Assembly: GCA_964016885.1 (NCBI GenBank)
Contig: CAXHJY010001274.1
Coordinates: 62,001-126,000 of the forward strand
Reading direction: 5' to 3'
Source: Eledone cirrhosa
Lineage: Eukaryota
DNA length: 64,000 bases
A program made the translations under genes and the position numbers. The stretch's first letter is position 1. Each line of letters begins with the position of its first letter. The notes under the pieces are model-generated. The model was given only the letters and a program-made list of their open reading frames with translations, was not told the DNA's origin and made no database searches. Shown one piece after another: positions 4,636 to 44,040 of this stretch.

Positions 4636-4803
4636 ACGAAGGAAGTGTGGTAAGGAACCAGACGCACCAAAGTACTCAAAACTTAGGGTAGTAGAGTGGG
4701 TAATAGGAACGAGTAGGACCCCGACGGCTGAGCTCAAGCCGTTTCGACAAGCCGTTTCGTCGAAACGGCTTGAGCTTAGCCGTCGGGGTCCTACTCGTTC
4801 CTA
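4636..4803. mobile_element. TA-embedded palindromic mini-element, copy 1
   Basis: Conserved aacgaaggaagtgtggtaaggaacc..gtagtagagtgggtaa segment plus a TAGGAA...TTCCTA palindrome. Confidence 0.8.
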
Positions 4804-5568
4804 TATATATATATATATATATATATATATATATATATACGTATATATATATATATATATATATATATATATATATATATATATACGTATATATATACGT
4901 ATATATATGTATATACGTATATATATATATATATATACGTATATATATGTATATATATATATATACGTATATATATATATATACGTATATATATATATAC
5001 GTATATATATATACGTATATATATATATACGTATATATATGTATATATATATATATACGTATATATATATATACGTATATATATTTATATATACGTATAT
5101 ATATGTATATATATATATATACGTATATATATATATATATACGTATATATATTTATATATACGTATATATATATATATATACGTATATATATATATACGT
5201 ATATATATGCATATATATATATACGTATATATATGTATATATATATATATACGTATATATATGTATATATATATATATATACGTATATATATTTATATAT
5301 ACGTATATATATATGTATATATATATATATATATATGTATATATATATATATGTATATATATATACGTATATATATATATATATATATATATATATATAT
5401 ATATATATATATACGTATATATATATATATATATATATATATATATGTATATATATATATACGTATATATATATATATACGTATATATATATATGTATAT
5501 ATATATATACGTATATATATATATATACGTATATATATATATATATATATATATATATATATATATAT
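4804..5568. repeat. Compound (TA)n microsatellite punctuated by CG/TG
   Basis: (TA)n with recurring TACGTA and TATGTA. Confidence 0.95.
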
Positions 5569-5687
5569 GAAGGCGTGTGGCTGAGTGGTTAGAGAATTGG
5601 ATTCGCAATCGTAAGGTTGTGAGTTCGATTCCTGGACCAGGCGATGCGTTATGTCCTTGAGCAAGACACTTTATTTCCCGTTGCTCC
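5569..5687 (+). mobile_element. tRNA-derived SINE family 2 (CORE/V-like), 5' part
   Basis: tggctgagtggttaga (A box), gagttcgattcc (B box), gtccttgagcaagacacttta. Confidence 0.75.
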
Positions 5688-6005
5688 TTCTACCTGGAGT
5701 TGCGACCGATAGATAGTATTAGCAATTGGAAAGACCAACGGAAACATTGTTCCCTCGGTCCGATTTGACGAAAGTCGATCGTCCCTTTATACGTATATAT
5801 ATATACGTATATATATATATTTGTATATATATATATACGTATATATATATATATATATATACGTATATATATATATATATATATATATACGTATATATAT
5901 ATATATATATATATACTATATATATATATATATATATACGTATATATATTAAAATTTAGGCCTAGAAGAAATAGTCGCATTTGTTGGTATAACCCACCAA
6001 ATAAT

Positions 6006-6638
6006 ATGGAGGTGGCCACACCATTAGCTAAGATCATTCTTTCCCTTATTACGAAGCATTTTCTCCCTACACATAAATATAGTAAAATTTTTAATAGAAA
6101 TACTATCAAAATTTCTTACTCTACGACTCCTAACCTTGCACATAACATCACAGCTTCAAATTTAGCTAAACTACCTAGCCGTAGGAACACGTGCAACCCT
6201 GTAGTTAGTACTAACTGTAATTGTAGGAATCGGGTTGATTGCCCCCTATCCGGGAAATGCCTCTCTAGTAACATTGTCTACAAATGTAAGGTTGTAACAC
6301 CCACGTCCTGTAGGGCCTACATAGGGTTAACCGCCAATAGATTCAAGCAGCGTCTTTACATGCATACCCATTCTTTTCGTTACCCTCTAAGAAGGAATAT
6401 GACGTCACTTTCAGCTTATATCTGGAGTCTAAAAGACAACCACACCCAATATAAGTTACACTGGGAGATCCTAGCTAGGGCTAGATCGTATAACGGAAAT
6501 AAAAGACCATGTGACCTGGAAATACTCTACGCCACAGACCACATCTTAAACAAAAAATCTGAGGCAATTTCGGCTTGTAAACATAAATTGCACAAAACTT
6601 TCCTGTATTACAGCCCCACGTTATACCCTAACGGATAG
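6006..6638 (+). CDS. Penelope-type GIY-YIG endonuclease fragment with Cys-rich linker
   Basis: [31 protein letters not shown]...[37 protein letters not shown]. Confidence 0.85.
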
Positions 6639-7565
6639 TACGATCTATACGTGGATATTTTACGTCTTGATGTGGGAGCTAAGTATATGTTTTGTTTATA
6701 CCATTACTTATTTGCATAGGTAAGTATATATTACTCGTATGTTTTGTGAAGGTACGTATACCTTCTCGTACGTATATTTGATTGTTTATGTTATGGCGTA
6801 TAATTTTATATATTCTGGTACATATGGTTTGGCTTTGTGTATACGGGAGTTTGGCGTCTGTGTGAGTATGCTGGTTCATACGTATGTAGGGTGTGTGTAT
6901 ATGTGTACTTCATGTTTTGGTTGACTAACGTCTCCGAACATTCGTGTATTTACATGTAGGTATATGTGTGCGCTTGTTATATACGTATTTATTTATTTAT
7001 ATACGTTTATATAATTATTTATTTATTTGTATACACGCATACACACACATATTTATATGTGCGTGGTTTTGTATACCTATGGTAAGTGTTTTGCGTATGC
7101 TTGTGTATGTACGTATTTGTTTTCATGTATGTATTTATTTCTATTTCTTCTGTATTGTATTTATTTACTTTGTTCTTAACTCTGTAGCGGAGATTCATTC
7201 GGTCTCCTAGTTAGAATTTTAGTCTACGACTTCTGCTATACCATTTACGTGGTTTTGTCTTTGCGTGCTATTGTTCTCCACGCTCCACATATGACGTATT
7301 ATCTTCGTTTTTTTCGTTCATTGCCAGAGTACGTCTCTATGAACCACATAAGAGAACATTAGTCTACGACCTCTTTTATACCATAAACGTGGTTCTGTCT
7401 TTGCGCGTAATTGTTTTTCACCGCTCCTATTAATGACGTATTATTCGTTTTTTCGCGTTCTTAGCCAGCGAACGTTTCCACGAACCAAAGTATCGTCTTC
7501 CTGTCTTCCTCCGGTTGCAACGTTTTTTGAAATATCCACTTCTGCGTTTACAGATTGACTTTGTT

Positions 7566-41200: not shown

Positions 41201-41777
41201 TACAGAACTACGTCATTCGACCACATGGAACGTAACAGTTCGACACGGATAGAAAGTCTGCTTAACACCGTGACAGATGTAGAAGGAAGACCAGTAAAAT
41301 GTAAAGATATCGCATTGTTAATTTTCAATGAAAAACAAATAGATCATGTCAACGTTCGCAGACAGACATTAAAATAAAAGCTAAAGAAACAAATATTATC
41401 AGTGTATTTCCCTATTCTATCTATGTACTTAACGTGTCTATCTATTTATCTCTGCATTTAACAATTTTTGTATCTATCTATGCATCTATCATACAATTTA
41501 TGTGTGTAAATCTGCGCATGTTTTTGTGTGTTATATATATATATGCACATTATATATATATATATATATATATATATATATATATATATATATATATATA
41601 TATATATATATATATATATATATATATATATATATATATATATATATATATATACATATATATATATATATATATAATTGGAAGCTTAGTAAAATCGAAG
41701 CTTTGGCTGTGGGCAAACAAAGTCGACCTATACATATATATATATATATATATATATATATATATATATATATATAT

Positions 41778-41914
41778 AACGAAGGAAATGTGGTAAGGAA
41801 CCAGGTGGACCATAACGCACAAAAGTACTCAATACTTAGGGTAGTAGAGTGGGTAATAGGAACCAGTAAGACCCCGACGGCTGAGCTCAGCCGTCGGGGT
41901 CTTACTGGTTCCTA
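41778..41914. mobile_element. Palindromic mini-element copy with a short perfect palindrome
   Basis: taggaaccagtaagaccccgacggctgagctcagccgtcggggtcttactggttccta plus the conserved tail; (TA)n on both sides. Confidence 0.82.
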
Positions 41915-42145
41915 TATATATATATATATATATATATATATATATGTGTGTGTGTTTGGGTTTGTTGGTTCACCACTGGATAGAACTGGTCATTCTGTGT
42001 GGTCAACCACGATGTAATGTTAAGGAAAGCACTCAACGTAATCCAACTCACCCTTCTTCGTTTGTGTAGTTGGTGGTGCGAGTACGGAGTTAATTATTAC
42101 AAAATAACAGGAGGCATGTACTGGTGTAAATCCTTGAAAGGTTTA

Positions 42146-42206
42146 TTATACTATGATCATTTCAATAACCGGGTTCAGTATGAATCCGGTGACATCATCA
42201 GGTAAT
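42146..42206 (-). ncRNA. Minimal type I hammerhead ribozyme
   Basis: RC: tac-CTGATGA-tgtcaccgg..ccggttatt-GAAA-tgatca-TA-gta, then AATAAA. Confidence 0.7.
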
Positions 42207-44040
42207 TCAAAATATAACGAAGGAATAAAACAAAAATTCATGGTGTTTAAATCAGAGACAGGGGGGTGGCCGGCAATTTAGCAGCTTCTAGCTACATCGA
42301 CCGCCCTCAAGTGCTGATTATTGGGTCTAGATACTACCATCTGGTGTGGGGGCGCAAGCCCTTAATGTACCACCACCATCCCGTCAGATGGGAATGTCAG
42401 TGCTGAGGTCACGCGTCAATCAGGCTGGTCAGGCATGCTCGATATTGCCGCGAAATATGTTTTTTCAAGGACAAACATCATCCGCGAAGACAGACATAGA
42501 GAATAAAAAGGGAGTGAGTGTGTGTGAATGAAAGAGAGATAGAGAGTGACAGAGAGAGTAGAACAGAGAGAGAGAGTGAGGGAGAATGAAAAACAGAGAG
42601 ATTGACTGAGAGAGTGAGAAAGAGAGAGTGTATGTAAGTGATATAGAGAGAAAGTGACAATTAATATAAGGAGACTTTTATGAAGAAGTTTAAGTGTGAT
42701 ATATATAGTCACGATAAATTGTCAGGGTGGTATATATAGTAAAAATACGCCCGTGCTAGTGGTCAATAACCAGCGACGACTGCGGGCCCCCGCGCCATCC
42801 ACCCCCTCCCCCGCGTGCCAGCTGTTCCGAGTAATATCGTCTAGCGAGAGAAATGGAAATTAGTTTTTCCGAGCACTCCAGGAATGTAACTGTCTTAGGC
42901 GTCGGTTGTGTCAGCGCGGAGCCGGCCCCTCGCCGGCTGGCCATCGTATATACCAAGTGGTTGGTATTATATCACACAGTGTGGGGGTTTAGTTAAGTGC
43001 TAGTAGGAAGAGGCATGATACAGCTAAAGGTTATGACTAAACCTAGAAAATAAAGGTAGTATTTGGCGGTCAATGCCAGCGGCGCGGCTAGTCCCAGGCC
43101 CGCCCTAGCCCCGGGACGAAGCAGCGTTTCCGAGTAATTTCGTTTATCGAAAGAAGAAGAAATCTATTTTTCCAAGCACTCAAGGAAGGCTAAAACGTCC
43201 GATTGCCCGGCGCACAATCAGGGAATCCGTCACATCCGTCGGATTATCGCGTATTACCAGACGATTAATATTTATTCACACCCGTGGTGTGAAGTTGAAA
43301 GTGGTAAAACGCGATGAAATGCGCTAATAGACTATATCTAGTCCCCATTTAGTCCGGGTTATATTAGTGTGGTTCTAGGGTGGGTAGGGGGAGTGAATAA
43401 GGAAACAGATATATGGGTACATAGAGTAATATTCCAGGTTCGTGTGCAAATGATCACAGTGGTAGTTATGTATTGGGAATAGAGCGAGTAAGTAAATACA
43501 TAAGTAAAAGGAATAATAAGCAAAATACAACATAAAAAATAAAAAGCCAAATACGTAAATAAATAAAACAATAAAAATACATAGATAAAATGCAGTCATA
43601 ACTAGGGTGGTGGTGCATGGAGTAAAACGGAAGTACAGAGAAGATATCGAAGAAATCAAAACATAGGGGAAATATATATATATATATATATATATATAAA
43701 GAGTCAGTACCCCCACGGCTGAGCTCATGCCGTTTCAACATATATATATATATATATATATATATATATAACCCAGCATGTCCTCAGCCCGTCGGCTGGT
43801 ACACAAATATATATATATATATATATATATATATACATATATATATATATATATATATATATACATATATATATGTATATATCGCAGAAAATATCATACT
43901 CTGCTCTATGAGAGCATCGAGTGCTCATACGGACGCTTTAAGCATCCAACACCAATTATATATATATATATATATATATATATCATATTTTAAATGCTGG
44001 AGAGAACAACAAAGATTTATGAATACATATATATATAATT

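Follow-up and report, generated by a model that had tools for sequence, protein, structure and literature searches.

A 140-nt repeat with palindromic insertions in Eledone cirrhosa, a probable non-autonomous Penelope-like insertion

Introduction

How is a palindrome built that has one fixed outer end, a centre changing from copy to copy and a unique tail on one side only? This question is raised by a short repeat in 64,000 nt of Eledone cirrhosa DNA (GCA_964016885.1, contig CAXHJY010001274.1, positions 62,001 to 126,000, forward strand; hereafter the window). An initial annotation had read the repeat as 5′-truncated, Penelope-type cDNAs that fold back at short palindromes and copy themselves up to a fixed point. 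We describe a high-copy unit of about 140 nt with two fixed ends which, judging from its anatomy and from read data, is probably a non-autonomous insertion of the Penelope-like element (PLE) type. The earlier observation was confirmed with small corrections, and its interpretation is partly supported.

Statements on cited sources refer to the parts of them that were available. PLE insertions carry an inverted, 5′-truncated copy and a 30–40 bp tail at one end, in (TA)n targets; Naiad and Hydra families occur in Octopus, the cephalopod Naiads being described as remnants (PMC8557442). In O. vulgaris, 31 PLE families are given as recently active (PMC13282606). Palindromes are found at inverted PLE junctions, for which self-priming was proposed, and the full pseudo-long terminal repeat (pLTR) exceeds the inverted repeat by 37 bp (PMC3846280). 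PLE hammerheads have a palindromic loop 3 and an extra base before G10.1 (PMC4209133). In vitro, both target strands are cut and extended, the tail corresponds to the stretch between two reverse transcriptase (RT) start sites, and hammerhead ribozyme mutants still insert (PMC11167929). The origin of the inverted repeats and of the one-sided tail is stated as open (PMC8557442, PMC11167929).

Results

Anatomy of the seven copies

The tail of the copy at 4636 (copy A), used as a BLAST query against the 64-kb window, matched six places: 4636 itself, 41779, 12897, 37711, 21590 and 7742 (E 1e-20 to 2e-6). With a tail-less arm recognized by reading, seven copies were found in total, six tail-bearing (A–F) and one arm alone (G; Table 1), and the recurrent repeat reported initially is real. 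From the tail inward, the order of parts is a tail of 78–80 nt (not ~85 nt, as first given), TAGGAA, a variable block of 8–10 nt and a conserved GC-rich arm with nested self-complementary words. TA runs adjoin five of the six tail ends and six of the seven outer ends. A head-to-head inverted copy is seen in A, C, D, E and F. The previously described hairpin of variable length bounded by TAGGAA/TTCCTA holds for A, D and F, but the outer end of C is decayed and E is lopsided; nor is every copy joined to a hairpin, the copy at 7660 (B) being a single arm with a tail. Copy C is older than the near-perfect palindromes A, D and F.

Centres vary between copies, as had been claimed: those of the symmetric copies lie at GAGCTC in F, near a TCGA word in A, where there is a 10-nt templated duplication, and at the inner limit of the unit in C (with a 5-nt duplication) and D. 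The nested palindrome at 21589 was also confirmed: copy D consists of full 61-nt arms and a nested centre, in which a copy-back with a 12-nt skip is followed by a second inversion at TGAGCTCA. The skip is identical on both halves, hence one half of this centre was copied from the other. The word GTCGAAAC, ascribed to the longer arms, is intact in both arms of A and in the inner arms of C and D but altered in the remaining arms. Finally, the arms had been said to resemble each other more within than between copies. For a block of 21–23 nt from TAGGAA, within-copy identity was 1.00, 0.71 (C), 0.95, 0.95 and 1.00, against a between-copy mean of 0.73 and maximum of 0.95 (61 pairs); the statement holds in four of the five two-armed copies and fails in C.

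Table 1. Positions in the window of the parts of copies A–G and of three unrelated inserts of the same build
Feature	Positions	Strand	Description
Copy A tail	4636..4703	-	10-nt internal deletion; adjoins (TA)n
Copy A palindrome	4704..4803		100 bp, halves 46/50 alike; outer end at (TA)n
Copy B outer arm	7660..7706		47 nt, begins at (TA)n; no inner arm
Copy B tail	7707..7780	+	diverged, inner ~6 nt lost; ends at (TA)n
Copy C palindrome	12695..12820		~126 bp, halves 52/65 alike; outer end decayed, outside (TA)n
Copy C tail	12821..12900	+	80 nt; ends at (TA)n
Copy D tail	21590..21663	-	lacks its final 4 nt; no adjoining TA run
Copy D palindrome	21664..21815		152 bp, halves 73/76 alike; outer end at (TA)n
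Copy D hammerhead-like stretch	21681..21724	-	on the presumed RNA strand GAAA, 5-bp stem III, GUC; 7–8 nt not matching CUGANGA in its place
Copy E lopsided palindrome	37563..37633		71 bp; outer arm reaches the inner limit but lacks 11 nt internally; inner arm short (~21 nt)
Copy E tail	37634..37712	+	79 nt
Copy F tail	41779..41856	-	78 nt; adjoins (TA)n
Copy F palindrome	41857..41914		perfect 58 bp (29/29), centre GAGCTC; outer end at (TA)n
Copy G	43697..43739		arm alone, no tail, TA run on each side
Insert	10612-10919		palindrome, ~30 nt tail to (TA)n
Insert	21827-22206		perfect 380-bp palindrome (190/190), 32–38 nt tail to next TA run; shares the TA run of copy D
Insert	29597-29774		palindrome 87/89, tail 56 nt to next TA run

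Ends, inner limit and joints in the read data

The family was then followed in sequencing reads, with the tail and inner half of copy D (21565–21742) as reference at 80% likeness; coordinates of ~21590–21742 in this section are copy D positions in the window. Four of seven read runs were used, two contig sets from one sample (X1 = X3) and two raw restriction site-associated DNA (RAD) runs from two other samples, X2, X4 and X7 being left out. Figures for loose ends are among the rows listed (24 of 662) and those for joints among the joints listed (15 of 33), a list biased toward long sides resembling copy D. The family is of high copy number, with 15,163–21,196 records matching the unit per run, a figure that is not itself a copy number.

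The tail end is fixed: in 7,203 and 8,012 raw reads, the loose ends before 21590 consist of (TA)n together with the final letters of the tail. Similarly, a second fixed end lies at the TAGGAA point: 1,745 and 1,820 raw reads have (TA)n as their loose end before 21663, and another 2,318 and 1,822 raw reads are clipped at 21677, carrying (TA)n and then the arm start of another subfamily. One sequence thus has two fixed (TA)n-joined ends ~79 nt apart, and the fixed outer point proposed initially exists. An assembly artefact was ruled out, as both ends are present in raw reads of the two other samples.

The inner limit is equally sharp. Contig word depth in X1 falls from 1.34 million (21715–20) to 0.44 million (21721–26) and 35 thousand (21727–32), and at 21723 mixed sequence takes over from the unit in 94 and 108 contigs, whose loose ends show an agreement of only 0.48–0.50. 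No shared extension past 21722–24 was seen among the rows listed, a rare long form being possible in the other 638. Because depth collapses at the inner limit with no common extension listed, we conclude that the unit stands alone at ~140 nt and does not look like the stub of a long element. Hence, of the claim of 5′-truncated PLE cDNAs, the PLE part fits the anatomy but the truncation of a longer element is not supported, and a check for a PLE open reading frame (ORF) or common extension beyond the arm gave none among the rows listed.

Thirteen of the 15 joints are strand changes, with 0–4 letters of overlap. In 11 of these 13 inverted joints one side lies at 21720–21724 and the other between 21627 and 21720; in five the other side is inside the tail (21627–21653), and three are near-symmetric at 21717–21723. 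Most joints are supported by few contigs. The block 5–13 nt from the outer end is the most variable part of the unit and defines subfamilies (A type, 1,147 and 1,195 raw reads; B/C/G type, 1,542 and 1,638). Since it marks subfamilies, likeness between arms mostly reflects that both come from one template.

Hammerhead-like features

On the presumed RNA strand, GAAA is followed by a 5–6 bp stem with GAGCUC in its loop and then by GUC, an arrangement that appears to fit the 3′ half of a hammerhead better than the initial annotation recorded. A complete hammerhead, which it had suggested looking for, is not there: the window holds 15 CTGANGA..GAAA matches, several in families, and none inside the seven copies, copy D having AGAAATA at the position of CUGANGA. 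Using descriptors written after the sequence had been seen, the 3′ half pattern was found in four of nine arm strands, against 237 and 216 of 20,000 shuffles (~1.1%), and a core-free full topology (G10.1-C11.1, stem I in register) in one of nine, against 6 and 4 of 20,000. An internal 7-nt repeat supplies part of the pattern, and 17 of the 20 window matches of the 3′ half fall outside the family. Folding prefers a competing hairpin over the hammerhead-like stem, and none of six folded strands of a single unit or arm was more stable than shuffles (z -0.57 to +1.83). Rfam gave no hammerhead among 150 listed of 313 whole-window matches, nor at 12600-12905 (10 matches) or 21590-21726 (1). These blanks carry little weight because Rfam also missed the CTGATGA..GAAA motif at 12637. 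By its letters, the stretch would be at most a dead or remodelled hammerhead.

The motif at 12637 belongs, with 17408 and 44515 (+), to a family of minimal hammerhead-like motifs, and an 11-letter stretch of their 3′ half recurs at the end of a Hydra-clade consensus in the part of the Craig supplement available (PMC8557442), a weak lead. A link between copy C and this motif, 58 nt upstream of it, was dropped, as no copy of the element comes after the two relatives (17408 and 44515), and the motif is regarded as a neighbour. Other hammerhead-like motifs have a TA repeat as stem III itself (10411 (+), ~16900 (-), 38052 (-), 38227 (+) and 44751 (-)). Also, motif pairs lie on opposite strands 175–240 nt apart (38052/38227 and 44515/44751).

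Other inserts and setting of the window

Three further inserts, unrelated to the unit and listed in Table 1, are built alike: one end of the palindrome adjoins (TA)n, and the opposite end carries a tail. This shared anatomy supports a PLE-type origin. In the insert at 10612-10919 the loop holds a hammerhead core, CTGAAGA..GAAA..GTC, at 10741, and the inversion continues stem I of the ribozyme by eye, which reads as a clear example of fold-back at a ribozyme stem. The insert at 21827-22206 is related to 10989-11053, a hammerhead-like 3′ half with a degenerate core. Another unrelated palindrome is present at 20414-20824 (185/208, tail unclear).

The window also contains a 5′-truncated, GIY-YIG-like ORF remnant (5949-6635, +) which starts at a TA run (Atlas cluster score 0.97, PF01541 on 23% of the cluster). 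Its nearest Atlas clusters are eukaryotic, most commonly from Mollusca, and from its sequence it is probably the 3′ part of a PLE. No link was found between this remnant and the unit. Downstream of it lies a diverged tandem pair (7213-7487).

The window consists of AT-rich animal DNA in which TA is repeated at least five times in a row at 171 places; from its short interspersed elements it would be octopus-like. It contains L1/Tx1-type retrotransposons, with RVT_1 and Exo_endo_phos at 31773-35228; such long interspersed elements lie at 31773-36959 (-), 503-2536 (-) and 47963-53600 (-), one of them having ORF1 (575 aa) and an open ORF2 (1,152 aa), the other two being broken copies ~78–87% alike. 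Tandem arrays of a 46-nt unit (~97% identity) and of a 615-nt unit (99.9%, running past the window edge) occupy 58664-60597 and 61987-64000. At 11250-11345, TA runs separate three copies of a short word that also occurs at the end of the 10270-10331 element, and similar TA-spaced repeats occur at 24700-24847. Inverted pairs with long spacers, each across microsatellites, were seen at 17047-17655, 31039-31236 and 39476-39830.

Discussion

Two cDNAs from two target ends

That PLE machinery in some form stands behind these insertions we consider likely. With moderate confidence only, we favour a route in which two cDNAs are primed from both target ends at two start sites on the RNA and joined head to head, with occasional snap-back. 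Its starting points are the two fixed (TA)n-joined ends, the hard inner limit, the variable and lopsided joints and the one case of copy-back, all of them directly visible. The unit would be a non-coding RNA of ~140 nt, a 61-nt arm followed by a 79-nt tail, moved in trans by a PLE RT and GIY-YIG endonuclease cutting (TA)n. One target end would prime cDNA 1 at the tail end of the RNA and the other would prime cDNA 2 inside the RNA, at the TTCC/TA boundary that lies 79 nt upstream. The second cDNA would be short and often reach the fixed 5′ limit of the RNA, while the first could end anywhere from within the tail to that limit, one or two snap-backs at self-complementary words being possible. 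Joining, if it occurs at this stage, would be head to head, through pairing at self-complementary words or through 0–4 nt of microhomology. The expected outcome is a palindrome whose outer end is fixed and whose centre varies, with a tail on one side only; the lopsided B and E and the lone arm G would be partial outcomes. The RNA intermediate and its strand, like the enzyme, the two primers and the moment of joining, are what we infer here.

Two cDNAs are preferred to one because the outer arm in B, E and five of the 13 inverted joints listed holds sequence with no counterpart on the tail-bearing strand; the outer arm of E ends at the inner limit of the unit and B has no inner arm. Also, symmetric centres would fall at self-complementary words because identical strands growing toward each other can pair only there.

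Several observations weigh against this proposal. An autonomous partner or a sequence link to any PLE was not found, and in the part available none of nine short element motifs from the Naiad/Chlamys/Hydra supplement matched in a fitting context, although line breaks in the files can hide motifs. A Pfam search gave no family for the ORF remnant at 5949-6635. The tail is twice the published 30–40 bp, a tandem pLTR was not seen and CUGANGA was not found in the seven copies. Target-site duplications are unreadable in (TA)n, with none seen by eye at C or D, and (TA)n contact is lacking at the tail end of D and the outer end of C. Of the five in-tail joints, four are supported by 1–2 contigs from a single sample (X1 = X3) and the fifth by raw reads that begin at two places, and B and E would also be obtainable by later deletions inside a full palindrome. 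Finally, the arms of D share a rare T at 21693 which is absent from the D centre copy, ~98% of family contig depth having C; this suggests arm-to-arm conversion after insertion, and the earlier argument that arms are alike, so made at insertion, is weakened.

Other explanations

In the route closest to the initial annotation, a single PLE cDNA from the tail end would fold back at a short palindrome, copy itself and be stopped or cut at TAGGAA before joining the target. According to published proposals, PLE palindromes arise by self-priming (PMC3846280) and the tail by endonuclease resolution (PMC8557442); four of the seven window copies are symmetric, and the small templated duplications at the centres of A and C speak for it, as does the skip common to both halves of the D centre, a real copy-back. 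As a general route, however, it needs added deletions wherever the outer arm exceeds the inner arm in length (B, E, five of 13 joints listed) or stands alone (G). The centre of F, moreover, is without the extra A expected from the natural 6-bp stem, and a direct fold-back there would rest on a 2-bp stem versus 8 bp for two strands. We regard fold-back of this kind as an unlikely origin of the family as a whole. It is also improbable that the master had a fixed palindromic form from the start, with the tail and two 61-nt arms that meet at the inner limit, and was copied whole, with later palindrome deletion and with conversion evening the arms. Central revision of palindromes is established, C and D turn at the same inner limit in spite of their different subfamilies, three of the 13 joints listed are near-symmetric at 21717–21723, and the variant common to the D arms suggests conversion. 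Yet deletion should cut both arms at scattered points, and 11 of the 13 joints listed keep one arm within 4 nt of the limit; the exit of 94 and 108 contigs at 21723 into mixed sequence is likewise hard to reconcile with a copied palindrome, and whole-copy retrotransposition would not be expected to place its far end so exactly in (TA)n.

Both precise ends in (TA)n would also suit a non-autonomous DNA transposon, either a TA-targeting foldback miniature inverted-repeat transposable element (MITE) of Mutator or Tc1/mariner type, with the arms as terminal repeats and the tail captured, or a Helentron derivative. MuTAnT, a foldback MITE of 200–300 bp with nested repeats and a (TA)n target, has 50 of 198 copies without part of a terminal repeat (PMC4486113). 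Here, however, the tail lies outside the inverted repeats in all five two-armed copies, the two real ends are not mutual inverted repeats, the most variable block is 5–13 nt from the supposed terminus, and outer ends do not exceed tail ends among the rows listed (4,063 versus 9,603 in X5, where RAD bias is possible). As for Helentrons, the 12–15 bp subterminal repeats, short 3′ stem-loop and TT targets given in the available part of PMC4067079 were not seen on reading the copies. We give this origin a low probability. The arrangement seen here, a unique segment beside a palindrome that contains nested hairpins and whose outer end is fixed, also resembles parvovirus inverted terminal repeats or HUH termini, and a hairpin-ended single-strand DNA element, with its T-shaped palindrome, fixed nick site and rolling-hairpin rearrangement of the centre, was considered. 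It is very improbable: no match was found in viral or metagenome contigs with exact patterns, no Rep ORF was noticed by eye among 43 long ORFs listed, and PLEs account for insertion into (TA)n and for the similarly built unrelated inserts, of which one carries a hammerhead core.

Two candidates were rejected. Against a tRNA-derived short interspersed element (SINE), no tRNA gene was found; an A-box-like word is present mid-unit in three of three scanned copies and a B-box-like word in one of three, made by the rare variant of D. Against a non-LTR retrozyme, copies are dispersed, single or inverted, without a hammerhead core, and no end-to-start joint occurs among the 15 joints listed.

Meaning

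The anatomy itself is already known from PLE insertions. Neither this family nor a model with two primers for the inverted insertions of PLEs was found described in the literature listed, in a search that did not extend to Repbase, Dfam and subscription journals; the Octopus vulgaris repeat library (PMC13282606) may hold the unit under another label.

Tentatively, the unit could be a free-standing 140-nt parasite of PLE enzymes, reduced to two priming sites spaced by 79 nt and to a hammerhead fold without catalytic activity, in which a self-complementary loop might pair two RNAs. Its genomic copies would then record how PLE inverted insertions are built in vivo from two cDNAs primed by both target ends, which would connect the in vitro two-start-site result with the unexplained inverted structures. 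If the PLE reading is true, the unit is a natural record of how these enzymes build inverted insertions. It fits within a read and occurs seven times in the 64-kb window. Since both of its ends are fixed and a single joint varies, counting joints in young copies could separate self-priming from two-primer models; it could also serve as a minimal template when PLEs are assayed in vitro. Caution is advised in annotation, as such inserts can pass as MITEs, SINEs or microRNA hairpins, and the Rfam matches of the window show such noise.

Comparison with known systems

In L1 twin priming, two target ends prime one RNA and an inversion results; the second primer anneals variably and the cDNAs barely overlap. 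B-type copies resemble this outcome, whereas the present unit differs in its fixed second start and its often duplicated arm. MuTAnT foldback MITEs share nested repeats and (TA)n with it, but their inverted repeats form both termini, with no unique tail outside (PMC4486113).

Animal non-LTR retrozymes (bioRxiv 10.64898/2026.07.22.740005), MRC1 of Chlamydomonas (PMC8557442) and short Penelope elements of Heliconius (PMC6685494) are likewise short, non-coding, of high copy number and moved by PLEs, as the unit probably is. Retrozymes are tandem units with a type I hammerhead (bioRxiv 10.64898/2026.07.22.740005), whereas the unit is dispersed and inverted and has no catalytic core. MRC1 forms pLTRs and resembles the 3′ end of its partner (PMC8557442); the unit has no known partner.

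With PAc, a Poseidon of Anolis studied in vitro, the proposed route has in common that the spacing of two RT start sites equals the tail, that both strands are cut and extended, that the target is AT-rich and that ribozyme activity is dispensable (PMC11167929). The PAc start sites are adjacent versus 79 nt apart here, and the available part of that paper leaves later steps open and inverted copies unexplained. In Octopus Naiads the word GTCGAAAC lies ~105 nt from the 3′ end by eye, versus ~115–120 nt in the unit; the available Naiad_Obim/Ovul ends were rejected as parent, sharing this word and no other likeness by eye. Compared with endonuclease-positive PLEs, the unit is without ORF or tandem pLTR and has a hard inner limit at ~140 nt and a tail of 79 nt rather than 30–40. 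Yet the head-to-head inverted copy, the tail at one end, the (TA)n target and the palindromic inverted junctions are common to the unit and to insertions of Naiad, Hydra, Neptune and Penelope/Poseidon (PMC8557442, PMC3846280).

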